This document shows, one piece after another, positions 3,326-28,234 of a DNA stretch of 32,000 nucleotides (its first letter is position 1; each line of letters begins with the position of its first letter). Made by a program: the position numbers and the translations under genes. Source of the DNA: Edaphobacter aggregans (GTDB lineage Bacteria > Acidobacteriota > Terriglobia > Terriglobales > Acidobacteriaceae); assembly GCF_003945235.1 (NCBI RefSeq), contig NZ_RSDW01000001.1, positions 4,710,001-4,742,000 of the forward strand, written 5' to 3'. The notes under the pieces were generated by a model that saw nothing but the letters and a program-made list of their open reading frames with translations, was not told the origin of the DNA and made no database searches.

Positions 3326-3347
3326 CCACATGCTTGCAGACAAAATG

Positions 3348-6451: not shown

Positions 6452-6462
6452 GAATCCGTACG

Positions 6463-6681
6463 ATGTGGCAAGGGAGAACGATTAGGAAAGAGAGGCGAAC
6501 GGTGACATCCACACCCGAACCGAATGAAGAGCCACGCTTATCCGAAATGGATGCAGCCATTTCGGAGCGGCATGTAAAGATTCAAACGCGCGCTTACGAA
6601 CTCTATCTGGAACGTGGAGACGGGCCGGGAAGCCAGTTCGATGATTGGCTAAAAGCAGAGTTGGAAATCGACAGCGAATGA
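6463..6681 (+). CDS. DUF2934 domain small protein
   Basis: The C-terminal RAYELYLERGDGPGSQFDDWLKAELEI matches the DUF2934 pattern. The start is uncertain (ATG 6463, GTG near 6502, or ATG 6547). Confidence 0.6.
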   Translation: MWQGRTIRKERRTVTSTPEPNEEPRLSEMDAAISERHVKIQTRAYELYLERGDGPGSQFDDWLKAELEIDSE

Positions 6682-6766
6682 TTTCTCAGGATGGTGTCTG
6701 ACGGCACGGTCGTCCATCTGGTTGATAACCCGGTTTCGGACCAACAGAAACATAGAGGCCCAGGAA

Positions 6767-7520
6767 ATGATAACGATCAATCTCGCAGACAAGGTCGCCG
6801 CAGTGACGGGCGGCAGCAGCGGAATTGGATTTGCCGCTGCCAGCGCTCTGGCCGAAGCAGGAGCTCATGTTTATGTCATGAGCCGGCGCCCAGAAGAACT
6901 CATCTCAGCCGTCGCGAAGATTGGACCGAACGCAACTGGCGTGCAGGGTGATGTTTCGTCCCAGCCTGACCTCGATCGTCTTTACGCTCAAATCAAGACA
7001 GAGAAGGGTAAGCTCGATGTCTTGATGGCCAATGCGGGCATAGCCAAATATGCGCCGATCGGGTCGATCACCGAGGAGCTCTACGACACCCTCTTCGACA
7101 CGAACGTCAAAGGGCTCGTGTTCACAGTCCAGAAGGCACTGCCATTGATGTCCGAGGGGATCGATCATTCTCACGGCCTCGGTGGTTGGGAGCAAGGGCT
7201 TACCCTCAAACAGTATCTACAGCGCCACAAAGGCCGCCGTTCGCTCTTTCGCGCGGACTTGGACGACAGACCTAATGGATCGGGGGATTCGCGTAAATGC
7301 AATCAGCCCTGGCACCATCGACACCCCAGGTCTGGAACGTCTATTTGCGGCTGGCGGAGCCGGCGAACAACGTCGGAAGTCGGTTGCGACCACGATCCCT
7401 ATGGGACGATTGGGCAAGCCGGAGGAGGTCGCTAAGGCGGTAGTGTTCCTCGCTTCAGACAACAGCAGCTTCATCACCGGAACTGAAGTGTTCGTCGACG
7501 GCGGTTTCGCACAGGTCTAG
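6767..7520 (+). pseudogene. short-chain dehydrogenase/reductase (SDR) interrupted by a frameshift at a G-run near 7156-7160
   Basis: Frame A gives TGGSSGIG...NAG...LPLMSEG and then nonsense. Frame B from 7158 reads GSIILTASVVGSKGLPSNSIYSATKAAV...FVDGGFAQV, the rest of a normal SDR. The two track ORFs 6722-7435 and 7182-7520 are the two halves. Confidence 0.8.
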
Positions 7521-7574
7521 GCGTCAAAGTCAGCTCCGAAAAAACAAAGAAAGCCCATGCCAACAAAGGCTGAA

Positions 7575-8129
7575 TTAGAGACTGCGAAGAGCGGTCATGA
7601 AGTTTTCGACCTTGCGGGCCGACGAGGATCTGCCGGATTTCAGATTGCGCTCAATGCAAAGCCCAGAAAAAAAGGACAGGACCATCTCCGCAATGGCAGA
7701 TGGGGCCATCCTGGGTTTCTCCGCTTTGATATTCAACGCGAGGAGTTGCAGCAGCAAGACTCGATTCCCGGCAATGGCCCCGTAAGCCTCCTCCGGAAGG
7801 ATGGCAAATTCCCGCATCGAGTTGATGGCGAAACATCCCTGCTTTTCCCCCTTGTTAAGGGGACCACTTTTGAGAAACATTTCGATGTTCTTCCAGCCAA
7901 GAGGTTCTTTGGTGAGTAGTCCTCGCTTGTCCTGGCTCTCAAGATAGTGTCGAAGGCACGCCAGAAAGAGGTCTTCCTTGTCCCGGAACTCTGTATAAAG
8001 GCCTGATTTATTTACACCCGTGGCCCGTTCCAGATCCTGGAGGCTCGCATCCGCAAACCCATGCTTCCAGAAGACAGGCATCGCCTTCTCCAGCACTTCC
8101 TCCCGGCTAAAGTTCTTCGGACGCCCCAT
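7575..8129 (-). CDS. TetR/AcrR family transcriptional regulator
   Basis: MGRPKNFSREEVLEKAMPVFWKHGFADASLQDLERATGVNKSGLYTEFRDKEDLF is a TetR N-terminal HTH. The gene is divergent from the SDR gene at 8289. Confidence 0.85.
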   Translation of the reverse strand: MGRPKNFSREEVLEKAMPVFWKHGFADASLQDLERATGVNKSGLYTEFRDKEDLFLACLRHYLESQDKRGLLTKEPLGWKNIEMFLKSGPLNKGEKQGCFAINSMREFAILPEEAYGAIAGNRVLLLQLLALNIKAEKPRMAPSAIAEMVLSFFSGLCIERNLKSGRSSSARKVENFMTALRSL

Positions 8130-8148
8130 ACTCTCATTCTCCTATAAA

Positions 8149-8215
8149 GAACTAAATAGTTCAATATTTCTGCATCCTCACCATGCTGCTGACATCGTAT
8201 AAAACTAAACGGTTC
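8149..8215. promoter_or_regulatory. Two related operator-like sites in the TetR/SDR divergent intergenic region
   Basis: The perfect palindrome GAACTA-AA-TAGTTC (8149-8162) and the related AAACTAAACGGTTC (8202-8215) each follow TATAAA. Their centres are 53 bp apart. Confidence 0.5.
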
Positions 8216-8288
8216 AGAACGGCTGGCCCGCGAGGCTAAAGGCCGACGGATCGCACGTAAATTGATTCAGGAAACTTGAGGGAGATCT

Positions 8289-9029
8289 ATGTCAAAGTTG
8301 GCAAACAAAGTAGCACTCGTAACGGGCGGTTCCCGGGGTATTGGTGCAGCGATTGCAAAGCGGTTGGCTGCGGATGGAGCAAGCGTGGCTATCACGTATG
8401 CGAAGGATACGAGCGCGGCTTCGGCTGTGGTCAAAGCGATTGAACTCGGTGGAGGAAAAGCTGTCGCGATCCAGGCGGACGCTGCCGACGCCCAAGCCGT
8501 TAGGGGTGCGGTCGAAAAGGCTGTTGCGACTTTCGGCCGGCTTGACGTGCTGGTGAACAATGCCGGCACAGCCATTCCGAAGCCTTTCGAGGAGGCAACG
8601 CTGGAAGAGATGGACCGAGTGCTCGACATCAACATCCGCGGCATATTCGCCGCCACGCAGGCGGCACTGAAGCACATGAAGGACGGCGGTCGCATCGTTA
8701 TGATCGGTTCGGCAGTGGGAGAACGTGCTGTTGCGCCCGGTCTTGTGCCCTATGCGGCCACGAAGGGAGCCGTCAAGATGTTCACTCAGGCGCTGTCCAG
8801 AGAGGTTGGGAGCCGGGGCATCACGGTCAACAACGTTCAGCCAGGTCCGATCGACACGGATTTGAATCCCGCGTCAGGTGATTGGGCGGTGCCGCAGAAA
8901 GCTGCCACGGCGCTCGACCGCTATGGGCACGTTGAGGAGATCGCCTCAATGGTGGCGTTCATCGCCGGTCCTGAATCCTCATACATCACCGGAGCTAACC
9001 TCACGGTTGATGGCGGGATGAACGCCTGA
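8289..9029 (+). CDS. SDR family oxidoreductase (FabG-like)
   Basis: TGGSRGIG, NNAG and YAATKGA motifs. GAGGGAG lies upstream of the ATG. Confidence 0.9.
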   Translation: MSKLANKVALVTGGSRGIGAAIAKRLAADGASVAITYAKDTSAASAVVKAIELGGGKAVAIQADAADAQAVRGAVEKAVATFGRLDVLVNNAGTAIPKPFEEATLEEMDRVLDINIRGIFAATQAALKHMKDGGRIVMIGSAVGERAVAPGLVPYAATKGAVKMFTQALSREVGSRGITVNNVQPGPIDTDLNPASGDWAVPQKAATALDRYGHVEEIASMVAFIAGPESSYITGANLTVDGGMNA

Positions 9030-9056
9030 CGCGTCACGCGCATTGGGGCCATAGAC

Positions 9057-9090
9057 GCAACCAGATATGTCTCGCTGCATATCTGGTTGC
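9057..9090 (+). terminator. Perfect 13-bp stem / 8-nt loop hairpin between two SDR genes
   Basis: GCAACCAGATATG-tctcgctg-CATATCTGGTTGC read directly. It is followed by TCACCTTC, with no U-tract. Confidence 0.4.
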
Positions 9091-9112
9091 TCACCTTCAA
9101 GTGGAGAGGACA

Positions 9113-9880
9113 ATGACATCACTTCAAAACAAAACGGCCCTTGTGACAGGCGCATCGCGAGGGATTGGCCGCGCGACGGCTACGGCGCTTGCTGAGGCCG
9201 GGGCTCATGTCTTGGTTCACTATGGCCGCTCTACACAGGAAGCGGAATCTCTGGTCGCCGAGATCCGAACGAAAGGCGGGCACGCCGATGCAATCTCGGC
9301 CGATCTAGGGACTCCGGGGGGCGCTTCGTCACTCGCCGAGCAAGTGCGTTCCATTATCGGTAACCGGCTGGATATTCTTGTGCTCAACGCCGGAATCAGC
9401 AAGGCGGGACGCATCGCGGATCACACGGTCGAGGATTTTAACAGCCTCTTTGCGACCAACGTCCGAGGCCCGTTCTTCTTGGTGCAGCAACTATTGGCAC
9501 TCCTTGGCGAGGGATCAAGCATCGTTGCTATCTCTTCCCTTGGGGCCCATGCGGTACCGGGCAAGCCCGGTCTGGAAAACCCTTCCCTTCTTGTTTACAG
9601 CTCGACCAAAGGGGCACTTGAGACGCTGGTGAAGAACTGGGCGGCCATTCTCGGGCCGAGCGGCATACGCGTGAACGCTGTTGCGCCAGGCGTAATCGAC
9701 ACAGATATGTCGAGTTTCACGAAGACTGAAGCTGGCCGTGAGGCCGCACTGGGAATGCAGGCATTGAGGCGTATCGGCAAGCCCGAGGATGTTGCTGACG
9801 TAGTCGCTTTCGTTGCATCCGATGCAGCACGCTGGATCACGGGGGCGAGTATTCCCGTAGATGGCGGTTCGAAACTCTAA
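9113..9880 (+). CDS. SDR family oxidoreductase
   Basis: TGASRGIG, LNAG and YSSTKGA motifs. GGAGAGGA lies upstream of the ATG at 9113 (MTSLQNK). Confidence 0.9.
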   Translation: MTSLQNKTALVTGASRGIGRATATALAEAGAHVLVHYGRSTQEAESLVAEIRTKGGHADAISADLGTPGGASSLAEQVRSIIGNRLDILVLNAGISKAGRIADHTVEDFNSLFATNVRGPFFLVQQLLALLGEGSSIVAISSLGAHAVPGKPGLENPSLLVYSSTKGALETLVKNWAAILGPSGIRVNAVAPGVIDTDMSSFTKTEAGREAALGMQALRRIGKPEDVADVVAFVASDAARWITGASIPVDGGSKL

Positions 9881-9900
9881 CAGGCAATGTGAGGAACTCG

Positions 9901-10293
9901 ATGAATGACACTTTTACCAAAGGCAAAGAGATCAAGATTCCTGGCCCAGATCATCCCATAGCAATTTTGCCGGTTGAGGGCCACGTGCGCGTGACGGTCG
10001 CCGGGAGAATCGTTGCTGAATCGACACGCGCCCTACTGCTGGAGGAGAAAGGATATCCGCCCGTCTACTACCTGCCACGCGAAGATGCCGACATGTCGCT
10101 GCTCGTTCGGACCACGCATTACACCTATTGTCCGTACAAAGGCGATTGCACGTATTACAGCATTCCCATTGGCAGGACGAAATCGGAATATGCCGTTTGG
10201 ACCTACGAAAACCCTTATGAGGCAGTGGCCGACATCAAGGACCACCTGGCGTTTTATCCCGCGCGGGTCGATGCGATCGAAGCGATCGCCTGA
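9901..10293 (+). CDS. DUF427 domain protein
   Basis: HVRVTVAGRIVAESTRALLLEEKGYPPVYYLPREDA...YCPYKGDCTYYSI...AFYP matches the DUF427 pattern. The start is at the ATG (MNDTF) after GAGGAA. Confidence 0.8.
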   Translation: MNDTFTKGKEIKIPGPDHPIAILPVEGHVRVTVAGRIVAESTRALLLEEKGYPPVYYLPREDADMSLLVRTTHYTYCPYKGDCTYYSIPIGRTKSEYAVWTYENPYEAVADIKDHLAFYPARVDAIEAIA

Positions 10294-15021: not shown

Positions 15022-15675
15022 TCACAAACGCGTTATACGTGTCCTTTCAAGCCTGGAAACGGCTCCGTGGAGCACTTCGTCTTCACTCAGCGCACGAATG
15101 AGTGACTTCCTTGCTCTCAGCAAGCGCGACTTTATCGCGACAAGCGAAGCCCGTGTCCGTGCGGCAACTTCGGACACAGTGACCTCCTCCGAACAACGAA
15201 TCTCGGTGGCCTCTCGGAGTAACGGCGGCAAATGCCGTACAGCCTTTCGGAGTTTGAGGTTTCTCTCTCGCTCAAGAAAGCGGCGCTCTGGATCCAATCC
15301 CGGATCGTAACTTTGCAAATGGGATAACATATCCCCGTCGAAAGGACTCTCAGGATGGGCCCGCTTTTTCCGAACGATCATCAGCGCAGAGTTGATCGCA
15401 ATGCGCGTAAGCCAAGTGGGAAACTTCGACCTTCCATCAAACTTATTGAGGTGAATGAACGCCTTTAGCAGTGATTCCTGCAATCCATCCTCTGCATCTT
15501 CTTCGCTCCGAGTAATTCGGTGAATCGAGCGCAAAATACTACTCGAGTGGCGCCTGCAAAGTTTGGCATAGGCCAGATGCATTCCCGCTTTTGCTGAGAT
15601 GACGAGCGCCTCGTCGGACGCAACTGCTAACGTACTTCCCATTGGAGAGTCTGCTCCTGCATCAAACGGATTCAT
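15022..15675 (-). CDS. RNA polymerase ECF-type sigma-70 family factor
   Basis: Region 2 (DAEDGLQESLLKAFIHLNKFDGRSKFPTWLTRIAINSALMIVRKKR) and region 4 (TVSEVAARTRASLVAIKSRLLRARKSL). The start is at the ATG preceded by GGAGGA; the ATG at 15687 is an alternative. Confidence 0.85.
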   Translation of the reverse strand: MNPFDAGADSPMGSTLAVASDEALVISAKAGMHLAYAKLCRRHSSSILRSIHRITRSEEDAEDGLQESLLKAFIHLNKFDGRSKFPTWLTRIAINSALMIVRKKRAHPESPFDGDMLSHLQSYDPGLDPERRFLERERNLKLRKAVRHLPPLLREATEIRCSEEVTVSEVAARTRASLVAIKSRLLRARKSLIRALSEDEVLHGAVSRLERTRITRL

Positions 15676-15713
15676 CGGTTCCTCCATTGCATCGATACAA
15701 GAGCACAGTCAGT

Positions 15714-16142
15714 TCATCTGATTCCCAGTAACGCACGCGGAGCACGTTCGGTAAGATCTTTTGCCGTGTGACCTGCCATCAGCCAGCCATGCTTCCGCAT
15801 CCCCAGAACCAGCAGATCCGAGTGATGTCTCTTCGTGCAATCGATAATGGTGCCCACTTCGTCTCCACTGATCAACTCGGCATCGATTACCAGTCCTGCC
15901 GCCTTGGCCTGTTGTCGGGCTTCGACTTGGAGTGCGCTGTACCTAGCTCTCTTCTCCTCGGTATCAGTCCAGTGGACAGCCGGTACTGCACTCATCGCGA
16001 AGGAGTAGTAGCTGGGAAGCGGCTCAAGGACGGTGACCACACTGAGCTCTGCCCGTAGCGCTTTCGCTAACTCGATTGACAAGCGAAGCGCCCTGCCAGC
16101 TTCGGGCGAGTCATCATAAGCAACCATGATCTTGTGAAACAT
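15714..16142 (-). CDS. universal stress protein (UspA family)
   Basis: MFHKIMVAYDDSPEAGRALRLSIELAKALRAELSVVTV...HHSDLLVLGMRKHGWL...TAKDLTERAPRALLGIR. AGGAGG lies upstream of the ATG. Confidence 0.9.
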   Translation of the reverse strand: MFHKIMVAYDDSPEAGRALRLSIELAKALRAELSVVTVLEPLPSYYSFAMSAVPAVHWTDTEEKRARYSALQVEARQQAKAAGLVIDAELISGDEVGTIIDCTKRHHSDLLVLGMRKHGWLMAGHTAKDLTERAPRALLGIR

Positions 16143-16242
16143 TGCGATCCTCCTTTATCAAATCGTGGAACCCCTGAAATTGACGACGCCCACTCCCAGG
16201 GCTCTAGTCCATCCGAAGTAATGTCATGCCGCGGCGCTCGAT

Positions 16243-16710
16243 TCACGGGGGCGATGGCACGGTTGTGCGGTCTTCCTTCCGTGAGGATCGTGCATTACGG
16301 CTGGTTAACCGGGTAACGATCGCAAAGAGGAGGCTCACCGAGATTCCGCACATCAACACGCCGATGATGCTCTCCAGCGGCCCAAGCGTGCGCCAGTTCG
16401 ACGGGAGACTCAAGTCATTGCAGCCGAGCGTCGAATAACTGCTCGCGGAGAAGTAGATCGAAGAGTCCCATGACGGTAGACACCTCCAGCGATAGAAGCA
16501 TGCCCACAGCAGAATCTCCATTCCGTGCAGGACAACGACTGCTGCTGTAAACCGCACAAGCAACGCTGCAGAACGAATGGCGCCAAGCTCCTGCATATCT
16601 CCTCCTAACGCACGTCGCACCCACACGATGAGAATCGCGACTCCTGCAGACTGTAGCCACAGCGTGACCGTGATGAGAGGCAACTCGGCGCCAAATCGAT
16701 GAACAGACAT
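16243..16710 (-). CDS. ion-channel-like membrane protein (Ion_trans_2 / K+ channel pore fold) with a non-canonical filter TLGCND
   Basis: Pore-region pattern WDSSIYFSASSYSTLGCNDLSLP flanked by TM helices, where canonical K+ channels have T-x-G-Y-G-D. The ATG at 16710 lies 23 nt after the outer-membrane gene stop and is preceded by AAAGGAAAA. Confidence 0.65.
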   Translation of the reverse strand: MSVHRFGAELPLITVTLWLQSAGVAILIVWVRRALGGDMQELGAIRSAALLVRFTAAVVVLHGMEILLWACFYRWRCLPSWDSSIYFSASSYSTLGCNDLSLPSNWRTLGPLESIIGVLMCGISVSLLFAIVTRLTSRNARSSRKEDRTTVPSPP

Positions 16711-16733
16711 TGGTTTTCCTTTCGCCGTTCGGC

Positions 16734-18176
16734 TTATTTCCAACCACCGCCCAGCGCTTTATAGAGCTGGACTAGGCTCTGGTACTCGTTATTGCGCGCC
16801 TGTGCCAGGGTCAGTTCGGCATTGAAAAGAGACCGCTGACTGTCAAGGACATCGAGGTAGTTCGACGTGCCGCCTCGATAACGCATGAGTGACACGTTGA
16901 CGGACTCCTGGAGATCCTTCACGGATTGTTCCTGGCGTTCGCGTACAGCGTGATTCTTGTCATAACCAATCAATGCATCCGAGACATCTCCGAACGCGCG
17001 CTGAATGGTCTGCTCATAGCCAATCAGGGCCTGCCGTTCCTCGGACTTCGCATAACGTAGGTTATTGCGCAGGTAACCGCCCTCGAAAATTGGCTGCGAG
17101 GCTGCCGCCGCATAGGTACCGATTCCGGGCGGCGCCGGAATATGCGAGCCGGCGAACTGGCTATGACCAAAAGCAGCGCCGCCAGAACCGAGGAGCGAGA
17201 TTTGCGGAAAAAACATTGCTTTGGCAACGCCAATGTTGGCATTCGCGGCTACCAGGTTTTCCTCAGCTTGATGAATGTCGGGCCTGCGTTCGAGCAACTG
17301 CGAAGGAAGGCCTGTGGGCAGCTGAGGTGGCAAAGTCTCGTTCCACTTCCAGCCGTCCGGAGTTTCAATGGCAAGGACCTCACCGCGAGGGACGTTGTCC
17401 GGATACTTTCCCAGCAGAATGTTGATCGCGTTTTCCGTCTGGCCGATCTGCCGTTCGAGATCGGGGATCTGCGCGTTTGCCGCATCGAGTACTTGCCGGG
17501 CTTGTAGCACATCAAGCGTTGTTGCAACACCGTGCTGCAGACGCGACTCAGTAAGCTTCACCGAATCCTGCTGGGTGCGCACGGTCTCTTCGGCGATCTG
17601 AAGCTGGAGGTCCAGATCGCGGAGAAGAAAGTAATCGCTCGCGACGTCGCTCACCAGTGTCAGGACTACGGTCTGTTGTGCGTCCTGTGTACCCAACAGT
17701 TGGGCCCGTGCCGCTTCTGTTTCGCGCCGATAGCGGCCGAAGAGATCAACCTGGAAGACGGCGTCCCCGGCGAGCGAAAAGATGTTCGACTTGATGTTCT
17801 CGTCGGTCTTTCCGCCGCTGAAAGTTGGGTCGAGGGAAACTTGCGGAAACTGGTTCGACCGTGCGATGCCTACCTGGGCCCTCGCGGCAGTGACGCGCTC
17901 GACTGCGAGTTGTAGATCATAGTTCTGCTTCAACGCCGTGCGGATCAAGTCTTGCAGTTGAGGATCGTGGAATACCTCCCACCATGGCAGATCGGCAAAC
18001 GATGCGGTTTGTGATGCAGCCTGTTGCGATTGGTCCGGGCCGTGGAAGGCCGGAGGCGTCGGCACCGCCGGCCGATGATAGTTGGGGCCGACCGTACAGC
18101 CGGAGAGCATAGCGGCCGACAGGAGAAGGAACCGTGCGGATCTTGTGCCGAAACGGTCTTGAAATCTATTACGCAT
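16734..18176 (-). CDS. RND efflux outer membrane factor lipoprotein (NodT/OprM family)
   Basis: Lipobox [11 protein letters not shown] after [16 protein letters not shown], with tandem OEP-type repeats and a C-terminal [15 protein letters not shown]. The ATG overlaps the RND pump stop by 8 nt (ATGCGTAA). Confidence 0.9.
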
Positions 18177-21100
18177 CTTGTTTGTCCTCCGCGATTTCAC
18201 CGTGCTGGGGTGCGGGTGCCGTGAAACGAGCCCGGGCCGCTGTGGACCATCGCTCCACGAGGTAGAAGATTGCGGGGACCGTGAAGATGCCGAGTACACT
18301 TGCGGCGGTCATTCCGCCGATCACGGTGGTCCCCATAATCTGACGTGCGACCGAGCCGGCGCCGGAGGCAGTCCACAGCGGCACACAGCCGAGAATGAAC
18401 GCGAACGAGGTCATCATGATGGGTCGCAGGCGAAGACGCGCACCTTCGAGCGCCGCATCGATGAGCGGCTTGCCTTGTTCGTACTGCTCTTTGGCAAACT
18501 CGACGATCAGAATCGCGTTCTTGGCGGCCAGGCCGATCAGCATCACCAGACCGATCTGCGCATAGACATCGTTCTCCATCTGGACCATGTACGGCGGCAG
18601 AAAGAGGCCCAGTACAACGCGGCGCAGCCATAACACTCCGAACGCACCGAAAACCGCGACCGGTGTGCTTAGCAGTACGCTAAACGGCAGACTCCAACTT
18701 TCGTAGAGCGCCGCAAGAATCAGGAAGACGAAGAGCAATGAGAATCCGAAGATGACCGACGACGGAACTCCCTCTTCTGCCTTTTGCTCCTGGTAAGACA
18801 TGCCCAAGTAGTCAAAACCCATTTCATGAGGCATGGTTTGCTTGAAGACTTCTTCGAGAGCCGCCCTTGCTTGATCGGAGCTGTAACCAGGGGCGGCGCT
18901 GGCGTTGATCTGCGCGGAGCGGTACTCGTTGTAGCGCATTGTGAATTCAGGGCCAGAGCGTGTCGCAAAGGATGCGAGAGCGGATAGCGGCACGGTTTCG
19001 CCCTGGTTGTTGCGCACGTAGAACTGTCCGAGGTTATCGGTGTTCGACCGGTAGGGAGCTTCAGACTCGATGTAGACCTGCCAGGTGCGGCCGAATTCGT
19101 TGTAGTAGTTGATGAACAGGCCGCCCATGTTGGCTTGAATTGTGTTGTAAACGTCGGTCAAAGCGACGCCTTGTTTCAGCACCTTCTCCTTGTCGACCTG
19201 GACGAACTCTTGCGGCACGCTCGGTATGAAGGTGGAGAAGATGGAGCCGATCTCAGGGCGCTTGCGAGCGGCCGTCAGGAATTTGTTGAGGTTGTCCGCA
19301 AGATATGGGACGTCCCTACCGGCGCGGTCTTCGAGGACGAACGAGACACCTCCCGAAGTGCCTACGCCCGGAATCGCCGGTGGCGAGAAGCTGAAGACCG
19401 TTCCTGCGGGCAGATTCGCGAGTTCCTTGTTCAAACGTGCCTTGATGGCCTGATACTGATCTGCCCGGTTCTTTCGCTCGTCCCAAGGTTTCAGGCTGAC
19501 CCAGAAGAAGCCGTTGTAGCTGGTGCGGACATAGCTGAGCAGGCTGAAGCCAACCACGCTGGTGGTGTACTGTACGCCCGGTGTGTCGGCGAGAATCTTC
19601 TCCACTTGTCTCGCCGCCGCGCTGGTGCGTTCCAGCGAAGCCGCATTGGGAAGCTGCATGTTGATGTAGAGGTATCCCTGATCCTCATCGGGCAGGAAGC
19701 TGGACGGTAGACGGCTGCCAAAGAAGAGTCCGGCCGCGCCGCAGGCTACCAGCAGCACCAGCACCATTGCCCCCCTGCGAAGAAGCACGCCGGACCAGTG
19801 GACGTAGCCTCCGGTGGCGCGTTCGAACAGGCGATTGAACCAGTTGAAGAAACGCTGCAAAGGCCCATGGCGCTCTCTCTTTTTGCGCAGTAGGAGCCCC
19901 GAAAGTGCGGGACTGAGTGTGAGCGCATTGAAGGCGGAAAGCACTACCGAGATGGCGATGGTGACTGCAAATTGTTGATACAACCTTCCCGTGATGCCAG
20001 GGATGAAAGCGGTCGGTACGAAGACCGCCGATAGAACCAATGCGATTCCAATAACCGGTCCGGTCAACTCGTCCATCGCTTTTCGAGCGGCGTCTTTGGG
20101 ATTCAAGCCCTCCTCGATGTGGCGCTGCACGCCTTCGACAACGACGATCGCGTCGTCTACCACCAGGCCGATGGCCAGTACCAGCCCGAACATTGAGAGG
20201 GTGTTGATGGAAAAGCCGAAGAGTGGGAATAGGATGAAGGTTCCAACCAGGGACACAGGCACGGCCAGTAATGGAATCAACGTGGCGCGCCAGTCCTGCA
20301 GGAAGAGATAGACCACCAGGATCACCAGCACAATTGCAATCAAGAGAGTCACGAGGATCTCTTTCATGCCTTCCGTAACGGGGGCTGTCTGATCGAGAGA
20401 TATGGCATAATCAACGTCCTCCGGGAGGCGCTGCTTCATCTGGGCCAGGAGCTTTCGGACCCCCTGCACAGTTTGAACAGCATTGGTCCCGGGCAACTGA
20501 TAGACGGCGATAGCCGCAGCGGGCTTGCCATTCAGACGACTGATCAGGCTGTAGTCCTGCGTACCCAACTCGACGCGGGCCACATCTTTTACGCGGACGA
20601 TGCCACCATTGGGGGCTTCGCGGATAACGACGTTGCCAAACTCTTCGGACGATTTCAGACGTCCCTGCGCCAGCACGCCATAGGTAAACTGCTGGTCCGC
20701 GGGAGCCGGTTCACCTCCGACCTGACCTGCGGGGTTGACTGTGTTTTGCGCCTGGATGGCGTTCGAGATGTCTGTAACGGTGATGCCGAGCTTCGCCAAC
20801 TGGTCGGGCTTCACCCACAGTCTCATGGCATACTGGCCCGAACCGAAGACCTGGGTCTGGCCCACGCCGTACAAGCGCGCGACAGGATCGTTGAGGTTTA
20901 TGTAGGCATAGTTCGCCAGATAGGTTGCGTCGTGCGTACCACGCGGCGAATACAGGGCGATAAGCATGAGCGGAGCGGTGGTGGACTTCTTGAGAGTGAC
21001 TCCGTAGCTGTTGACCGAAGGCGGGAGCTGACCGGTTGCCAATTGTTCGCGCGATTGCGTAAGCAGCAGGTCAGTGTTGGGGTCGGTTTTGAGATCGAAA

Positions 21101-21381
21101 TCGACCAGCAACGATGTTTGCTGGTTGGCCGTGGCATTTAGGGAGTACATGTAGGTCATGTCGTCCACGCCGTTCACTTGCTGCTCGATGGGCGTGGCGA
21201 CTGCGTCTTCGAGTGTCTTGGCATCGGCGCCCGGGTAGTTGGCTTGCAACCTGATCTCGGGCGGTGCGATGTTGGGAAACTGTGCTATCGGCAGGGTCGC
21301 GATGGTAACTGCGCCGACGATGACCATAAGGATCGCGATGACCATCGCCACAATGGGGCGATTTATGAAAAACTTTGACAT
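18169..21381 (-). CDS. RND multidrug efflux permease (AcrB/MexB-like, HAE1 family)
   Basis: 1070-aa ORF beginning [43 protein letters not shown], with 12-TM/two-large-loop architecture typical of AcrB. Confidence 0.95.
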
Positions 21382-21424: not shown

Positions 21425-22657
21425 TTACTCGACGTTGTTCTTGAATGGCTTGGTTTGTACCGTCATTCCCGGCCGGACATTTTGTTGGCCTTCGACAATC
21501 ACACGGTCGCCCGGCTTCAATCCACCATCGATGACCCACATTGTGTCTGTGCGTTGTCCCACTTGCACGGGACGCATGCTGACGCGGTTGTCCTTATCGA
21601 CAACAGCAACGAGATTGCTGCCCTGCTGTTCGTTGACGGCCGCTTGTGGAATTAGCAGGGCATTCTGCTGCACGCGGACGATGGCGCGAACCTTGCCGTA
21701 CTGCCCGGGGCGCAAAACATTGCCAGGGTTTGGAAACAGGGCGGCGAGCTGGATGGCACCGGTGTTCGGGTTCACCTGGCGATCGGCGAAATAAAATTGG
21801 CCCTCTTGTGGATACGTTGTTCCATCGGCGAGGATGAGCTGCAGCTTCCAATGATCTTTCTCTGAATCTGAAAACCTCTTTTGCAACGCCAGATATTGCT
21901 GTTCGCTGACGGTGAAGTAATCTCTGATGGGATCGAGCGTGGAGACTGTAGTCAGCGGGCTGCTGCTGGAGCTGACCAGGTCGCCGACCTGTGCCTGGGC
22001 GATGCCGGCAATGCCGTCGATTGGCGCGACGATGCGCGTGAAACTGAGATTGATTGAGGCGGTTTCAACCGTGGCCTCGCTGGCTTTGATTTGAGCTTTC
22101 GCTGCCGCAATGCCCGCCTCGGCTGCCTTTACCTGGGCCTTATTTGCAAAATCCGTCTGCGTCGCATTATCGAAATCCTGCTTGCTGACGGCGTCGACTT
22201 TTGCCAGAGGCTCGTATTTCTCCACATTGAGCTGGCTCTTGAGCCGGTTAGCTTCAGATGTCGAAAGCTGAGCCTCGTCCTGAGCCAGCTGCGCCTGAGC
22301 CTGAGCGAACTGGCCCCGTGCCTGATCGAGCGCCGCCTGGAATGGGCGAGGATCGATCTCAAACAGAATTTGTCCCTTGCGGACGAACGATCCTTCCTTA
22401 TAGTTGCGCGTAAGCAGGTAACCCGTGACTTGCGCTTTCACATCGGCATTTACCTGCCCTGTGAGGGTTCCGATCCATTCTCCATTGATTGGAACATCTC
22501 TCTGCTCTACCAGAGCGACCTCAACCAGGGGCGACGATGGCGTCTGCGTGGAAGGCTTCGCCGCGGAACGAGAGACTGCGACGCCCAGAATGGCCGCGAG
22601 CAGAACACCTGATACCCATGCCACTTGCTTTGGTTTCAGAACGGACTTGATCTTCAT
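21425..22657 (-). CDS. RND efflux periplasmic adaptor (membrane fusion protein, AcrA/MexA-like)
   Basis: N-terminal anchor, a coiled-coil segment (QAALDQARGQFAQAQAQLAQDEAQL...) and beta-barrel motifs (TRIVAPIDGIAG). AGGAGA lies upstream of the ATG. Confidence 0.9.
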   Translation of the reverse strand: MKIKSVLKPKQVAWVSGVLLAAILGVAVSRSAAKPSTQTPSSPLVEVALVEQRDVPINGEWIGTLTGQVNADVKAQVTGYLLTRNYKEGSFVRKGQILFEIDPRPFQAALDQARGQFAQAQAQLAQDEAQLSTSEANRLKSQLNVEKYEPLAKVDAVSKQDFDNATQTDFANKAQVKAAEAGIAAAKAQIKASEATVETASINLSFTRIVAPIDGIAGIAQAQVGDLVSSSSSPLTTVSTLDPIRDYFTVSEQQYLALQKRFSDSEKDHWKLQLILADGTTYPQEGQFYFADRQVNPNTGAIQLAALFPNPGNVLRPGQYGKVRAIVRVQQNALLIPQAAVNEQQGSNLVAVVDKDNRVSMRPVQVGQRTDTMWVIDGGLKPGDRVIVEGQQNVRPGMTVQTKPFKNNVE

Positions 22658-23004
22658 TTGCTGCTCTCCTGTTGCCGGGATGTTGACCTGCGGGGAAGCT
22701 TTTTACTTGACGACTGCACCATGGCGCCTTCGCAAGAAGGCTGAGAAGTGAGATCCCCGATGAGGGTAGTCAGCCACACGCCTTCAACGATGAGACAGGC
22801 CCCCGCCAGATGAATGGCCGCGAGAAGATCGTGTCCGGCCTTATCGATCCCCGTCAGCTGTCTCAAATCGACTTCGATCTTTCGGTCTGGGCCCAGCGAA
22901 AAGCGCCAGGCGTTTTCTGTTTCGGCCACCCACGGGCCCTCCAGCCTGCCCGCGAGTTCCAGCCTGCATACCTTGCCGTCGTCGTAAATCGTGATGCGTA
23001 ACAT
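22654..23004 (-). CDS. small STAS-like (anti-sigma-antagonist fold) protein, first gene of the RND operon
   Basis: MLRITIYDDGKVCRLELAGRLEGPWVAETENAWRFSL...IEVDLRQLTGIDKAGHDLLAAIHLAGACLIVEG resembles SpoIIAA/STAS, but IDKAG replaces the phosphorylatable D-S-S-G. The stop overlaps the adaptor ATG (ATGA). I chose the start at the ATG at 23004; the track's 183-aa version begins at 23205. Confidence 0.6.
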   Translation of the reverse strand: MLRITIYDDGKVCRLELAGRLEGPWVAETENAWRFSLGPDRKIEVDLRQLTGIDKAGHDLLAAIHLAGACLIVEGVWLTTLIGDLTSQPSCEGAMVQSSSKKLPRRSTSRQQESSK

Positions 23005-23023: not shown

Positions 23024-23038
23024 GCAGGGGGCGTGCCA
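23024..23038 (-). promoter_or_regulatory. candidate sigma-54 (-24/-12) promoter TGGCACG-N4-CTGC
   Basis: The minus strand reads TTTGGCACGCCCCCTGCCAT, with GG and GC separated by exactly 10 nt as in the consensus TGGCACG-N4-TTGC. It lies about 20 nt upstream of the STAS-like ATG, and a sigma-54 activator is encoded divergently. Confidence 0.55.
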
Positions 23039-23113: not shown

Positions 23114-23158
23114 GGTAGCATGCTGCCGGAAAACTGGCAGATGCCACGGAGCGATCGC
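23114..23158. promoter_or_regulatory. cluster of palindromes; candidate activator binding sites (UAS)
   Basis: GGTAGCATGCTGCC (14-bp palindrome with one mismatched pair, 23114-23127), TGGCA-GA-TGCCA (23135-23146) and GCGATCGC (23151-23158). They lie about 90-130 bp upstream of the putative -24/-12 element. Confidence 0.35.
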
Positions 23159-23218: not shown

Positions 23219-25297
23219 ATGCCTGTATCGAGTCACTCGCAACCGGTCACTCTCAGCGAAAGCCTTGTTTCGCGATACGAGGCGCTCGCCCGCATCGCGG
23301 AATTGATCCGGTCTCATCCGGAGGAAAAAGTCTTATTCCAGACCTGCGCGAGCGAACTGCATCAAGTGGTTGCATTCGATGGTCTAAGTTTGTTCGATCC
23401 GGCAGTCCATTGGGTCCAGTGGGATTTCCTCGAGCCTTATGACAATGCACTTGAGGCTCTCGCGGTCCGAGATATTCCGAAAGAGGAAACGGTCGCATGG
23501 TGGGTGTACCAGAATCAGCGGCCAGTAGTTATTCCGTCCATCGACCGCGAAACAAGTTTTCCCCTTGTGGTCGAGCGGCTTTCCAACTTAGGGCTTCGTT
23601 CGCTGTACGCCGTTCCCCTGAGCACGGCACACCGAAAGCTCGGAAGTCTGGTTTTTGCCAGCCACTCTGAAGACGCATACTCCAACGAGGATCAACAATT
23701 CTTGTCTTTGGTTGCTAATCAGATCGCCGTGGCAATGGACGATGCTCGTGCGCAGGCTCGTTTGAGGCTGCTCCTGGACATCACCAATCGCATTGTCACC
23801 AAGCTGGAGTTGCGCGACCTGCTTCGCGAAAGTGTCGCGAGTATAAGGCACTTCATGCAATGCGACAGCGTCGGCGTGGCTCTGCCCGATCCGGAAGATG
23901 GCGAATTACGGCGTTATGCTGTGGATTATGTCGGGTCCGAGGAGATGTCTGTCGGCTCCGCATCCGAGCGGACCAAGACCGTGTTCCGGACGGGCAACCC
24001 ACTGATCGCGACCAAGGACGAAGTCGCTGCTGATCCCCAGGGCGCGATGCCGAACTTGTCGCTCTGCCTTTATCCGCTGATCATCCGGGAACGCGTGCTC
24101 GGCGTGCTCGGTCTTGGCAGTTCGCGAGAGAATGCCTTCACCGAGGATGATCTTTCCTTCCTCGGTCAGGTGGCCAATCAAATCGCTCTCGCCGTTGAAA
24201 ATGCTCTCGCGTATGGGCAGGTTTCCGAACTCAAAGATAAGCTCGCGCAGGAAAATGTCTATCTCGAATCCGAGATCCGCAGTGAGCTTCATTTTGAGGA
24301 TATCGTCGGAAACAGCGAGCAGCTGCGCCGGGTTCTGAAAGATATTGAGACGGTAGCGCCCGCAGATTCCACTGTGCTCATTTATGGAGAGACGGGCACC
24401 GGGAAAGAGTTGATCGCTCGGGCGCTGCACGAGCTTAGCTCTCGGAAGCCGAACGCCTTTGTGAAGCTGAATTGTGCGGCGATTCCGACGGGGTTGCTCG
24501 AGAGCGAGCTGTTCGGCCACGAGAAAGGTGCATTCACTGGCGCCATCATGCAGCGCGTGGGGCGCTTTGAACTGGCGAATCGCGGAACCATTTTCCTGGA
24601 TGAGGTTGGCGAAATCCCGCTCGAACTGCAGCCAAAGCTCCTACGTGTTCTGCAGGAGCGGGAGTTCGAACGCCTGGGCAGCACGCGCACCATTCGCACT
24701 GACGCCCGGTTGATCGCCGCGACGAATCGCGATCTTAAGACCATGGTAGAGGAACAGAGATTCCGATCTGATTTGTATTATCGACTGAATGTCTTCCCCA
24801 TCCGCGTGCCATCGTTGCGGGAACGAAAAGAAGACATTCCTCTGCTTGTCCGCCACTTCGTCAAGGAATTCAGCCGCCGGAACCATCGGGTGATCGACAC
24901 CATTCCATCTGAAACCATGCAGGCGTTGATCCGCTATCAATGGCCAGGCAATATTAGAGAGCTTCAAAATGTGATCGAGCGGGCAGTGATTATCTCTGGG
25001 GGACCCGTTTTGAATGTGGCCGTCGCCGAACTCACCCCGGATGTGAGTTCTCCTCCAGTTCCTATTGTCACCAGCACCAAACCCGCCTCCCATGAGAGCC
25101 TTCAGGAGACGCTGGAAGAGACGGAGCGGAATCAGATTCTGCGTGCCCTGGAAGACGCGAATGGGGTAGTCGCGGGGCCGAAGGGAGCCGCAGCCCGTCT
25201 TGGAGTCAAGCGATCGACGCTCCAACTCAGGATGCAGAGGCTTGGAATCCGGCTGTCGCGAACTGCCGTTGATGACCGCAAGCAAACAGCGCAATGA
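23219..25297 (+). CDS. sigma-54-dependent transcriptional activator (bEBP), GAF-GAF-AAA+-Fis HTH architecture (FhlA-like)
   Basis: Walker A GETGTGKE, the sigma-54 contact motif GAFTGA (HEKGAFTGA), FRSDLYYRLNVFPI, WPGNIRELQNVIERA and a C-terminal HTH (AAARLGVKRSTLQLRMQRLGI). About 340 N-terminal aa form two GAF-like repeats. Confidence 0.93.
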   Translation: MPVSSHSQPVTLSESLVSRYEALARIAELIRSHPEEKVLFQTCASELHQVVAFDGLSLFDPAVHWVQWDFLEPYDNALEALAVRDIPKEETVAWWVYQNQRPVVIPSIDRETSFPLVVERLSNLGLRSLYAVPLSTAHRKLGSLVFASHSEDAYSNEDQQFLSLVANQIAVAMDDARAQARLRLLLDITNRIVTKLELRDLLRESVASIRHFMQCDSVGVALPDPEDGELRRYAVDYVGSEEMSVGSASERTKTVFRTGNPLIATKDEVAADPQGAMPNLSLCLYPLIIRERVLGVLGLGSSRENAFTEDDLSFLGQVANQIALAVENALAYGQVSELKDKLAQENVYLESEIRSELHFEDIVGNSEQLRRVLKDIETVAPADSTVLIYGETGTGKELIARALHELSSRKPNAFVKLNCAAIPTGLLESELFGHEKGAFTGAIMQRVGRFELANRGTIFLDEVGEIPLELQPKLLRVLQEREFERLGSTRTIRTDARLIAATNRDLKTMVEEQRFRSDLYYRLNVFPIRVPSLRERKEDIPLLVRHFVKEFSRRNHRVIDTIPSETMQALIRYQWPGNIRELQNVIERAVIISGGPVLNVAVAELTPDVSSPPVPIVTSTKPASHESLQETLEETERNQILRALEDANGVVAGPKGAAARLGVKRSTLQLRMQRLGIRLSRTAVDDRKQTAQ

Positions 25298-25575: not shown

Positions 25576-27009
25576 CTAACCACCAACAGTGAGTTCAGGC
25601 GCCGCAAGGTCTGCACTCTCACGCGCCCACGCGGTCGCAGAAGCCCATCCAAGAAACAGCACAATCGCTCCGCATCCCGTCATGATCCACCAGATCGGGT
25701 GCGTCGCCAGCGTGAAGCTGGATCCCTTGGCACGGCTCGAGCTCACCACCGTCCCTGCAATTGCCACGCCCAGCGCCGCGCCCACCTGCCGCGCGGTAGA
25801 AGCGATCGCCGCGGCCACACCCGCCTGCGCTAGAGGCATCCCCGCAACCGCACTGTTGGCAATCGCCGGATTCACCATCCCCAGCCCCAGGCCGAACAAA
25901 GCATAAGCCGCCAACAGCACAGCCAGAGGGGTCCCACGGGTAAGCTGTGTCATCAGCAACGTACTAAGCAAAAAGGATGTGCCCGCAGCGTAGAGCGATG
26001 GCCGTGTACCATACCGTCCGATTAATCGCCCGCTCCAGGGAGAACCCACCATCATCGCCAGCGCCAGCGGCAGCGTGGATAGCCCCGTATGGAACGCTGA
26101 GAACCCACGCACCTGCTGCAGGTAAAGCACATTCAGAAACAGGAAAGCCGAGAACGATGAGAACGCACTTAACCCAAGGATCGTAGCGCAGCTGAACGGC
26201 ACGCTGCGAAAGAATCGCAGGTCCACCAGCGGGTCGTTGCGCCGCGGTTCATAGAGTAGGAAGCCGATAAACGCCGCCCCAGCCGCAGTAAACAGCCCAC
26301 GGATCAGAGAGGAACTCCAACCTGCATCCGGCCCTTCAATGACCGCATACGTTAACGTCATCAGCCCCACGAACACCAGCGCTTGTCCCGCCGGATCGAA
26401 GGCCCGCGCCTGCGCGGCCTTCGACTCCGGCACATACACCGTCGCCAAGATGACAGCCGCAATCCCAATCGGCACGTTGATCCAGAAGATCGAACGCCAA
26501 CCCATTGCCTGCGTCAAAGCGCCGCCCAGCAGGGGTCCCAGCGCCAGTGCCAACCCCGCCACCGCGCCCCACACACCCACCGCCTTCGCCCGCGCCCTGG
26601 GTTCAGTAAAAACATTCGCAACGATGGAGAGCGCGACTGGATTGAGCATGGAAGCGCCCAGACCCTGCAGCGCACGATAAGCCACGAGTTGATCAATAGT
26701 ATGTGCCAGGCTGCAAAGCAGCGAACCCGCTACAAACAGCGTCAGCCCAATCTGAAACACCCGTCTTCGCCCGAATCGATCGGACATGGAACCCGACAGC
26801 ATCAGCAGACTCGCGATCACCAGCGTATACGCGTCGATAATCCATTGCAGTCCCGAAAGACTCGCTTGCAGATCATGCTGAATCGCTGGCAATGCCACGT
26901 TGACGATCGTCACATCCATGGCTATCAGCAGCACGCTCATGCAGCATATCCCCAGCACGAGATTCTGCCGAACAGGCCCGCGGCTGCTCGCGACCTCAGG
27001 CGAGCGCAT
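25576..27009 (-). CDS. MFS transporter, DHA2 (EmrB/QacA) drug:H+ antiporter family, 14-TM type
   Basis: MFS motif A (GSMSDRFGRRRV) and a long hydrophobic profile. I placed the start at the ATG at 27009 (MRSPEV), overlapping the isochorismatase stop by 14 nt; the track start at 27033 is a TTG. Confidence 0.88.
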   Translation of the reverse strand: MRSPEVASSRGPVRQNLVLGICCMSVLLIAMDVTIVNVALPAIQHDLQASLSGLQWIIDAYTLVIASLLMLSGSMSDRFGRRRVFQIGLTLFVAGSLLCSLAHTIDQLVAYRALQGLGASMLNPVALSIVANVFTEPRARAKAVGVWGAVAGLALALGPLLGGALTQAMGWRSIFWINVPIGIAAVILATVYVPESKAAQARAFDPAGQALVFVGLMTLTYAVIEGPDAGWSSSLIRGLFTAAGAAFIGFLLYEPRRNDPLVDLRFFRSVPFSCATILGLSAFSSFSAFLFLNVLYLQQVRGFSAFHTGLSTLPLALAMMVGSPWSGRLIGRYGTRPSLYAAGTSFLLSTLLMTQLTRGTPLAVLLAAYALFGLGLGMVNPAIANSAVAGMPLAQAGVAAAIASTARQVGAALGVAIAGTVVSSSRAKGSSFTLATHPIWWIMTGCGAIVLFLGWASATAWARESADLAAPELTVGG

Positions 27010-27565
27010 TGATGATCTCCTGACTCGAGCCAACTCGTCCGATCATCGGGAAGATCTTCTCCATCGCAAACGTATGCGCGTCAGTCTCAAGTGTGGAGCA
27101 CGCATCCTCCGCGATCACCACCTGAAAGCCGACGGCCACCGCATGCCGCGCCGTAGACTCCACGCCAAAGTTGGTTGCCACACCGCCCAGCACAATCGTC
27201 GTCACGCCCATCTTCTTCAACGTGTCCTCCATCTCTGTCTGGCCAAACGCGCTCCAGTGGCGCTTCGTGATCAGCAGATCACTCTCCTGAAACCCAGCCG
27301 CAGGCACTAGCTCAGAGGCAATCGCGGGGAACGGTCCGGCGGTTGGATCCATGCGCGAGCGATCCACAATCAACGGCATCAGGTTGTTCAAATCCACCCG
27401 CACATAGACAACCTTGGCATCTTTCTCGCGGAAAGCCTTGGCTATCTTGCTTGAAACTTTCACCACCGCATCGGCGGAATATGGCTGGACAGGCATGCCC
27501 AGAATGCCATGCTGCAGATCGATCAGGACAAGAGCTGTAGTTTTCGAATCAAGCGAAAGGGCCAT
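26996..27565 (-). CDS. isochorismatase family (cysteine hydrolase) protein
   Basis: TALVLIDLQHGI...ITKRHWSAFGQTEMEDTLKKMGVTTIVLGGVATNFGVESTARHA has the Asp/Lys/Cys-type isochorismatase-fold pattern. AGGAGA lies upstream of the ATG. Confidence 0.88.
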   Translation of the reverse strand: MALSLDSKTTALVLIDLQHGILGMPVQPYSADAVVKVSSKIAKAFREKDAKVVYVRVDLNNLMPLIVDRSRMDPTAGPFPAIASELVPAAGFQESDLLITKRHWSAFGQTEMEDTLKKMGVTTIVLGGVATNFGVESTARHAVAVGFQVVIAEDACSTLETDAHTFAMEKIFPMIGRVGSSQEIINALA

Positions 27566-27583: not shown

Positions 27584-27641
27584 AAGTCGAGGGTATCCTC
27601 AACTTATCTTTTATTCTAATATACGAGGATGCCCTCGACTT
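27584..27641. promoter_or_regulatory. 17-bp inverted repeat bracketing the divergent promoter region; right arm covers the TetR start codon
   Basis: AAGTCGAGGGTATCCTC (27584-27600) pairs with GAGGATGCCCTCGACTT (27625-27641) at 16 of 17 positions. The 24-bp AT-rich spacer contains TAATAT. Confidence 0.6.
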
Positions 27642-28234
27642 CTGCAAATCCAAGACGCCGCCCGCAACAGAACCGGGCCGAGGTCCGTCGCGCCAGCTTC
27701 CTCCAGGCCGCCGAGCAACTCTTCGGCACCCTTGGCTACGAGGCCGTCACCATGACCGCCATTGCCGAGCAGGCACAGGCGTCCATCGGCACCCTCTATG
27801 ACTATTTCCCAGACAAGCCCACCCTTGCCCTCGCCCTCATCACGCAGTACATCCGTGAGGCCGAGGTGCATTGGGCGAAGCTCCTGCAACGCCCACCCGC
27901 CCGCACCAAGGCCTCCATAGCGGACGTTTTCATCGAAGGCATCCTCGAATTCGCGAACGACCGCATCGCCTATCTCCCGCTGTTGGGTGCGCCCCTCGCC
28001 TACGCCCGCACCAAGGCCGCCCGAGAACCTCTGCGGAGAACCATCGCCACCGCACTCCAGAACCTCAAGCCCAGCCTGTCCGCGGATCGAGCCTTTCTCA
28101 ATGCCCAGGTCATCGTCGAAATCATCAAAGGCATGCTCGGGGTCTACCGCCAGGCCACGCTGAAAGATAGGGAAGCCGTAGTCACCGAGTTCAAGAAGGT
28201 CATGCGCCTCTACCTCACCGATACCCTCGCCTAA
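27629..28234 (+). CDS. TetR/AcrR family transcriptional regulator
   Basis: NRAEVRRASFLQAAEQLFGTLGYEAVTMTAIAEQAQASIGTLYDYFPDKPTL is a TetR HTH. The gene is divergent from the isochorismatase-MFS pair. Confidence 0.88.
   Translation: MPSTSANPRRRPQQNRAEVRRASFLQAAEQLFGTLGYEAVTMTAIAEQAQASIGTLYDYFPDKPTLALALITQYIREAEVHWAKLLQRPPARTKASIADVFIEGILEFANDRIAYLPLLGAPLAYARTKAAREPLRRTIATALQNLKPSLSADRAFLNAQVIVEIIKGMLGVYRQATLKDREAVVTEFKKVMRLYLTDTLA

Follow-up and report, generated by a model that had tools for sequence, protein, structure and literature searches.

The 32,000-nucleotide stretch of the Edaphobacter aggregans genome analysed here (contig NZ_RSDW01000001.1; hereafter the window, in whose numbering positions are given) carries on its minus strand a gene for a 116-residue protein with a predicted STAS fold. 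This gene is the promoter-proximal cistron of a sigma-54-dependent operon that continues with the adaptor, the permease and the outer-membrane factor (OMF) of a resistance-nodulation-division (RND) efflux pump. An FhlA-like enhancer-binding protein, which presumably drives the operon, is encoded divergently. The features of this region are listed below, with open reading frame abbreviated as ORF, the ratio of nonsynonymous to synonymous substitution rates as dN/dS, and the predicted local distance difference test score as pLDDT.

22654-23004, minus strand: gene for the STAS-fold mini-protein, 116 codons plus stop (ORF, homologues, core dN/dS, AlphaFold/Foldseek)
22741-23004, minus strand: predicted STAS core, residues 1-88, β1-β2-α1-β3-α2-β4-α3 (pLDDT, conservation across 66 members)
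22834-22845, minus strand: codons for D54-K55-A56-G57 in the β3-α2 loop (read from the sequence; profile alignment to MDSSG/MDSAG)
22654-22740, minus strand: basic, Ser-rich, predicted disordered tail, residues ~89-116, whose codons also hold the Shine-Dalgarno sequence of the adaptor gene and the ATGA (low pLDDT, dN/dS ~1)
23024-23038, minus strand: sigma-54 promoter TGGCACGCCCCCTGC (TGGCAC-N5-CTGC), with GG at 23036-23037 and GC at 23024-23025, invariant across aligned loci
23123-23140, minus strand: candidate enhancer (upstream activating sequence) half-palindrome CTGCCAGTTTTCCGGCAG, ~85-100 nt upstream of the -24 element
23219-25297, plus strand: FhlA-like sigma-54 enhancer-binding protein (the activator), GAF-GAF-AAA+-HTH_8, 692 residues, divergent from the STAS gene (Pfam and NCBIfam)
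21425-22657, minus strand: RND periplasmic adaptor (membrane fusion protein, MFP), overlapping the STAS gene by ATGA (TIGR01730, E=8e-75)
18169-21381, minus strand: RND permease, HAE1 multidrug type (ACR_tran, 1056 bits; NF000282, 1274 bits)
16734-18299, minus strand: OMF, NodT/OprM type (TIGR01845, E=2.7e-118)

The best NCBIfam match of the activator is FhlA (NF011958, E=4.5e-170), below the cut-off of that model. The true start of the OMF is probably downstream of the GTG used in the list, as tblastn matches begin at residues 17-60.

The STAS ORF runs from an ATG at 23004-23002 to a TGA at 22656-22654, and its product is MLRITIYDDGKVCRLELAGRLEGPWVAETENAWRFSLGPDRKIEVDLRQLTGIDKAGHDLLAAIHLAGACLIVEGVWLTTLIGDLTSQPSCEGAMVQSSSKKLPRRSTSRQQESSK. 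The adaptor ATG (22657-22655) overlaps the stop codon in an ATGA at 22654-22657, and the AGGAGA Shine-Dalgarno sequence of the adaptor gene lies within the STAS tail codons at ~22665-22670. A longer form starting from TTG at 23205 (183 residues) was rejected, as the extension would cover the promoter and the aligned upstream region is indel-rich and of low identity, unlike a coding region. The ORF does not occur by chance, since it has 365 close homologues in a 90%-clustered collection (E≤1e-3, mostly 115-116 residues) and a profile search of 1.84 billion representatives retrieves 1,893 clusters at 50% identity (E≤1e-3; 273 at E≤1e-10). The family clusters are nearly all 90-130 residues long and begin with MLRIT or MLKIT. 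Against nine orthologues, dN/dS of the 88-residue core is 0.16-0.35 in eight comparisons and 0.66 in one close pair, while that of the tail is approximately 1 in several comparisons. To judge from these ratios, the core is under purifying selection and the tail evolves nearly neutrally. The STAS gene is a real gene encoding a conserved protein. Its 4-nt ATGA overlap with the next gene is kept throughout the window's clade and found in 18 loci with differing downstream genes; in many other relatives a gap of 30-400 nt separates the two. The STAS protein may be produced stoichiometrically with the pump components, as the sequence-only reading supposed.

Single-sequence comparisons give low scores for the STAS assignment. 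The window protein matches Pfam STAS_2 weakly (E=0.0065, 17.1 bits) and does not reach the curated gathering cut-off of 29.2, a phmmer search with the single sequence against PDB sequences returned noise alone (E≥0.58), and NCBIfam has no model for the protein, yielding just a chance TIGR03089 match. Among 66 diverse family members, 49 match STAS_2 (best E=3.1e-7) and 19 match STAS at E≤0.01. By these profile matches, the family is a divergent STAS subfamily lying below the curated cut-off. Searched against PDB sequences, a profile of the 66 members finds TM1442 (E=6.6e-4) and SpoIIAA (E=3e-3), and its match to MlaB is insignificant (E=0.28). The AlphaFold2 model built from a diverse alignment has an overall pLDDT of 81, with residues 1-75 above 90, and the topology β-β-α-β-α-β-α. 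The top 50 Foldseek matches of this model in the PDB are STAS domains without exception (probability 1.00), including SpoIIAA, TM1442, RsbV, RsfB, MlaB, RsbS and the SLC26 STAS domain; the best is SpoIIAA 1tid (E=1.2e-5, root-mean-square deviation ~3 Å over ~92 residues). This model replaced a first AlphaFold run on 40 near-identical sequences (pLDDT 68), for which Foldseek was topped by a spurious APOBEC match (deviation >10 Å) with STAS at E ~0.1. The predicted structure thus places the mini-protein in the STAS superfamily.

In the profile alignment the family motif vD-x-aG corresponds to MDSSG/MDSAG of SpoIIAA and TM1442, and K55 occupies the position of the Ser that is phosphorylated in SpoIIAA and RsbV. 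Of the loop motif D-[ST]-[SA]-G, the family keeps D54 and G57 without variation, and the second position is Lys in the window and variable elsewhere. Across 148 representatives the residues at the phospho-position are D (32), A (27), E (23), S (17), N (9), T (7) and others, that is, Ser/Thr in 24 (16%) and Asp/Glu in 55 (37%). As read from its sequence, the canonical site of the window's STAS protein cannot accept a phosphate. Among the larger ORFs of the window, Pfam scans detected no HATPase_c anti-sigma kinase or PP2C phosphatase, and neither is present in the gene lists of five related loci (L013, L015, L098, L100 and L102). The features from which the sequence-only reading had recognised this protein, namely a SpoIIAA/STAS-like pattern, Lys-Ala at the place of the phosphorylated Ser, a Ser/Lys/Arg-rich tail and a stop codon overlapping the adaptor start of which it is the leading cistron, are all borne out by the model, the alignment and the annotation above, including the profile searches and structure prediction by which that reading proposed to check the fold.

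Residues invariant or nearly so in the 66 diverse members are G19, L21, W25, V26, E28, W33, D46, L47, D54, G57, L60, L61 and G68. Placed on the AlphaFold model, the most conserved residues of the alignment map to α1, which carries the family signature GPWVxExExxW, to the β3-α2 loop and to α2. SpoIIAA binds SpoIIAB via that same region. The tail is rich in S, K and R, with a low pLDDT and predicted disorder; its mean net charge among family representatives is ~+2, and the QQESSK-coding CAGGAGAGCAGCAAATGA within it is conserved in the window's clade. Three cysteines (C13, C70 and C91) are nearly invariant in the close clade (≥75% identity, alignment A1) and are not kept in the wider family; a redox or metal-related role particular to the clade is possible.

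The sigma-54 promoter, which the sequence-only reading had missed, has its GC 19 nt before the STAS ATG. TTGGC-N8-TGC is invariant in 13 aligned intergenic regions (the window plus 12 related genome loci), and TGGCAC-N5-YTGC occurs once in the 32-kb window. In the wider set, 51 of 89 loci have TGG-N9-TGC no more than 150 nt ahead of the STAS start, compared with 6% of background windows. The distance from GC to ATG peaks at 19 nt in the window's clade and at 27-31 nt in a distant clade that has a GGAG-type Shine-Dalgarno sequence. No sigma-70-like promoter was detected between 16000 and 23400. Further upstream, the aligned intergenic regions share a GCCCGTTTCCGGGC-like element, of which L005 and L007 have two copies, and a similar element, CTGCCGAATTACCGGCAG, is seen in L102. 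This palindrome is likely the enhancer, as its conservation suggests. The repeat finder run on the window did not report the imperfect palindrome, and the element rests on the cross-locus alignment.

The conservation of this arrangement was followed in 12 species-representative genomes with a close STAS relative and in a metagenome scan with a distant sub-alignment, in which more than 590 loci were found and 80 kept. The 12 genomes are Acidobacteriota (Alloacidobacterium, Acidobacteriaceae, Bryobacteraceae, Sulfotelmatobacter and others), one of them mislabelled (L009). Where contigs allow, the order in the genome loci is the activator gene, divergent from a unit of STAS, adaptor, RND and OMF genes. 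The activator is syntenic in 12 of 12, with a truncated copy in L009. This locus (CAVPLC010000006.1) comes from a metagenome-assembled genome labelled Actinomycetes, in which the truncated acidobacterial-type activator and the STAS gene are joined to high-GC sequence with repetitive ORFs, and there is no pump. The contig is probably a chimeric or mis-binned assembly, and it was excluded. In the 80 metagenome loci the order is mostly activator, 0.2-8 kb, then STAS, adaptor, RND and OMF, all in one direction. Of the 20 loci that extend 8 kb or more upstream of the STAS gene, 17 have an FhlA-like GAF-GAF activator on that side; of the 31 that extend 5 kb or more downstream, 28 have a pump component there.

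The genes that follow vary. In L013, L088 and L098 they encode an OMF, an EmrA-like adaptor and a transporter of the major facilitator superfamily (MFS). L015 has a divergent MacB-type ABC pump, the only such neighbour among the loci, and its STAS gene stands directly before the activator in the same direction. In L023, L035, L064, L066 and L068 the next genes encode a short-chain dehydrogenase/reductase (SDR), DedA, a secreted cupin, a lipoprotein or an alcohol dehydrogenase (ADH), and in L066 and L076 the pump is absent within 6-10 kb. A tandem double STAS is followed by a Crp-family regulator in L100, and in L102 the STAS stop overlaps the start of a gene for a sigma factor of the extracytoplasmic function (ECF) type. 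In L098, L100 and L102 the FhlA-like activator is the gene immediately upstream of the STAS gene. Because the cargo varies between loci, what stays constant is an activator of this family, a sigma-54 promoter and, first or nearly first in the transcription unit, the STAS ORF; a tripartite pump (RND, MFS or ABC) is the usual, non-obligatory cargo. Conservation of the module, which comprises activator, sigma-54 promoter, STAS gene and genes for tripartite efflux or detoxification, extends across Acidobacteriota and to many contigs from soil metagenomes. The neighbourhood survey proposed by the sequence-only reading therefore links the homologues to efflux genes, as that reading supposed, and adds a near-constant FhlA-like activator and sigma-54 promoter; the specific association with RND operons does not stand, as MFS, ABC, SDR/cupin/ADH, Crp and ECF sigma neighbours are also seen.

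Duplicated copies of the STAS gene are seen at several loci. Tandem double-STAS proteins of the family include P0181, P0245 and those of L100 (766-1215) and L101. The double-STAS gene of L100 and L101 lies directly after the FhlA-like activator and overlaps a Crp/FNR-family gene, with no pump nearby. In L012 a second STAS copy (645-893, minus strand) is found just downstream of the activator on the activator's strand, and L068 has two STAS copies in tandem, with the second copy at 6676-6954 (plus strand). In a distant clade (L057, L082, L058, L045, L046, L042 and L032) a second adaptor-RND pair without its own STAS gene is located between the activator and the STAS gene, and the STAS gene is under its own sigma-54 promoter, TGGAATGCTCCTTGC, in the gap following the first pump. 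The proposal that each sigma-54 unit near the activator begins with a STAS ORF was rejected, as two genuine copies are present just in L012 and L068, and the upstream pumps of L057, L082 and L058 lack a STAS gene.

In 30 of 137 representatives with a complete core (~22%), the frame runs on via a basic linker into a Sec-type signal peptide, and past the signal peptide, contig permitting, mostly into a TolC-like OMF. Fused representatives include P0132, P0133, P0176, P0183, P0187, P0189, P0213, P0229 and P0243. In P0226 and P0227 the fusion partners are other domains that look exported and match no Pfam family, and in P0197 the STAS core is joined directly to the mature OMF with no hydrophobic segment. 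The fusion in L013 (8001-9635, 544 residues) is one uninterrupted ORF. The STAS domain lacks its own signal peptide and is followed by a positively charged linker; it is therefore expected to stay in the cytoplasm. A folded cytoplasmic domain ahead of a signal peptide is unusual in itself.

Public annotations name relatives of this protein 'hypothetical', 'MlaB component' or 'anti-anti-sigma factor'. Neither STAS proteins in RND or sigma-54 efflux operons nor fusions between STAS domains and signal peptides turned up in a literature search, in agreement with the earlier view that a leading STAS cistron is outside the described paradigm of RND operons. The fold is already known, and what is new is the context, the loss of the phospho-switch, the α1 signature and the fusions.

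The STAS protein is probably a regulatory partner of the adjacent activator or of the pump. A conserved protein partner is suggested because the conserved α1, loop and α2 residues lie on the helical face via which MlaB binds MlaF (PMC7367683). The activator is favoured as this partner because it is the sole protein that co-occurs with all cargo types, and because the arrangement mirrors anti-activator circuits, in which a small regulator heads the sigma-54 operon of its target: the STAS gene is inside a sigma-54 operon next to the activator, and this arrangement is conserved. PspA is such an anti-activator of PspF, hycABCDEFGHI is FhlA-dependent (PMC4987338), and hycA is described as a repressor of formate hydrogenlyase (PMC8487115). 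From the gene arrangement we tentatively propose that the STAS protein may be a stoichiometric, phosphorylation-independent feedback modulator of the adjacent activator. Its amount would track operon output, and it would bind the cognate activator through the conserved helical face (α1 GPWVxExExxW plus the α2 loop) and thereby affect its ATPase activity or its oligomerisation; negative feedback is the likeliest outcome. The quantity of STAS protein and its stoichiometric binding would exert the control, with phosphorylation playing no part. In the fused relatives the STAS domain would remain on the cytoplasmic side while the exported partner crosses the membrane.

Several observations weigh against feedback on the activator. 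No STAS-activator fusion is found among the 150 best family representatives, and the activator already has two GAF sensor domains. The link to the pump (28 of 31 loci) is statistically as strong as the link to the activator, and the fusion of ~22% of representatives to the next exported protein, usually the OMF, points by Rosetta-stone logic to the pump or its export. Additionally, the usual sigma-54 geometry predicts a transcription start at ~23012 in the window and a leader of ~8 nt without a Shine-Dalgarno sequence in its clade; therefore, translation of the STAS ORF is supported by evolutionary evidence alone. The short leader is one of the points on which a different reading could be built, in which the ORF is a cis-acting translated leader that loads ribosomes on the sigma-54 transcript and drives coupled translation, its protein having little or no function in trans. 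In its favour, the ORF is in every case the one nearest the promoter, it often overlaps the next gene, whatever that gene encodes, and fusions to that gene are tolerated. However, a mere leader does not need a STAS fold, and both the selection on the folded 88-residue domain (core dN/dS 0.16-0.35, against ~1 for the tail) and a specific surface motif kept over 1,893 clusters make this very improbable.

The pump itself would be the partner if the STAS protein were an accessory or assembly factor at the inner membrane face, acting on the pump or on the export of its subunits, for example by docking the first exported precursor, with MlaB as a precedent (PMC7367683). The downstream pump components, the ATGA overlap in 18 loci and the in-frame signal-peptide-like segment after the core in 30 of 137 representatives, mostly leading into an OMF, are consistent with such a role, and the basic tail suits a membrane-proximal location. 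However, the energising component varies (RND, MFS or MacB-type ABC), so that no common cytoplasmic docking partner is evident, the cytoplasmic tail of the adaptor is only ~11 residues in the translation of 21425-22657, and the fused partners work beyond the inner membrane, whereas the STAS domain has no signal peptide of its own. The region downstream is without a pump in L066, L076, L100 and L102, and the second, upstream pump of L057, L082 and L058 has no STAS gene. By analogy with MlaB, an accessory role is possible, if doubtful, and it is the chief rival to feedback on the activator. The antagonist role raised by the sequence-only reading, a partner-switching element acting on the nearby ECF sigma factor, would in its present form control that factor at the end of the operon, or another sigma, via an anti-sigma encoded elsewhere. 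In its favour, the protein folds like an anti-sigma antagonist. Downstream of the pump, the window as well as L001, L002, L007, L012, L013 and L088 carry an ECF sigma gene, and in L102 the start of an ECF-type sigma gene overlaps the STAS stop. Classic partner switching is nevertheless unlikely because the phospho-site is missing (Lys in the window, Ser/Thr in 16% of representatives) and because the window's larger ORFs and the related gene lists contain no GHKL kinase or PP2C phosphatase. The ECF sigma gene is absent from most loci with several kb downstream, and where no anti-sigma gene adjoins it, an ECF sigma is compatible with simple transcriptional control. HrpL is an example of such control, being a sigma factor made from a sigma-54 promoter. 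An antagonist role may hold at some loci; as a whole it is improbable, and it would not be general.

Feedback on the activator thus remains the tentatively preferred reading. Its extension to the whole family, as a new class of phosphorylation-independent STAS regulators that report operon output to FhlA-like enhancer-binding proteins and, in the ~22% of fused relatives, give an export-coupled feedback signal, is rather unlikely. In the export-coupled version, the fused STAS domain would be left at, or released from, the cytoplasmic face once the first exported pump subunit had been exported and cleaved.

The SpoIIAA, RsbV and TM1442 proteins share with the window protein a single STAS domain, fold and size, give the best structural and profile matches, and have the D-x-x-G loop at the start of α2 that is retained here. 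They differ in that the window protein has Lys55 in place of Ser, with no adjacent GHKL kinase/anti-sigma or PP2C phosphatase found, and its gene belongs to a sigma-54 efflux operon, not to an operon of sigma-factor genes. The Trp-rich GPWVxExExxW on α1 and the basic tail or signal-peptide fusion after the core are further differences. Single-domain STAS regulators reviewed elsewhere each rely on such a serine (PMC8256260). MlaB, of the MlaFEDB lipid ABC transporter, is likewise a small STAS-only protein encoded beside a transport system, and acts through stable binding with no demonstrated phosphorylation (PMC7367683). In contrast to MlaB, the family studied here has no MlaF, MlaE or MlaD genes beside it, its pumps are RND, MFS or MacB tripartite exporters, and the equivalent of Thr52 is absent.

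In Vibrio fischeri, sypA is the first gene of a sigma-54/SypG-dependent locus, and SypA acts on a target other than a known anti-sigma factor. Like the window protein, SypA has STAS as its only domain; the activator SypG is among the regulators of the syp locus that encodes it (PMC8256260, PMC4517449). However, SypA is phosphorylated on Ser56 by SypE, whereas the window protein has Lys and no SypE-like gene was found in the window, and the syp cargo is polysaccharide genes rather than efflux or detoxification genes. The PspA/PspF and HycA/FhlA pairs (PMC4987338, PMC8487115) resemble the present locus in that a small regulator heads the sigma-54 operon of the target activator, with the activator gene adjacent. 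PspA is a coiled coil, unlike the predicted STAS domain of the window protein, for which activator binding is proposed from gene arrangement. HycA is, to our knowledge, not a STAS protein.

These results define a widespread module of soil Acidobacteria, composed of an FhlA-like activator, a sigma-54 promoter, a STAS mini-protein and a tripartite pump, in which the STAS fold appears to work with neither phosphorylation nor an anti-sigma kinase. Efflux-pump regulation is described almost wholly via TetR, MarR and AraC repressors and two-component systems at sigma-70 promoters. If the STAS protein binds the activator, it would be a new type of modulator of enhancer-binding proteins; should its partner be the pump or the precursors of the pump, RND, MFS and ABC tripartite exporters would for the first time have a cytoplasmic accessory in common. 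Either way, the module offers a testable handle on the control of xenobiotic export in an abundant and poorly studied phylum.

Three further genes follow the OMF on the same strand.

16243-16743, minus strand: Ion_trans_2 channel, overlapping the OMF stop (Pfam)
15714-16142, minus strand: universal stress protein, Usp (Pfam)
15022-15687, minus strand: ECF sigma factor (Pfam)

No terminator-like site is found on the minus strand between 23004 and 13075, and the channel, Usp and ECF sigma genes (15022-16743) are possibly the distal part of the pump transcription unit. Six other loci likewise have an ECF sigma gene behind the pump, and in L102 such a gene overlaps the STAS stop; this points to a cascade in which the activator acts through sigma-54 on an ECF sigma factor.

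On the other side, a second efflux unit adjoins the activator. A DHA2/EmrB-type MFS exporter gene (25576-27033, minus strand) overlaps a gene for an isochorismatase-family hydrolase (26996-27565, minus strand), and a TetR regulator (27629-28234, plus strand) is divergent from this unit. At the beginning of the window, positions 1221-10293 (plus strand) hold putative xenobiotic-degradation genes encoding an AraC regulator, two alpha/beta hydrolases (one a dienelactone hydrolase), an enoyl-CoA hydratase, a metallo-beta-lactamase-fold protein, three SDRs and a DUF427 protein, a gene run that fits a detoxification neighbourhood.

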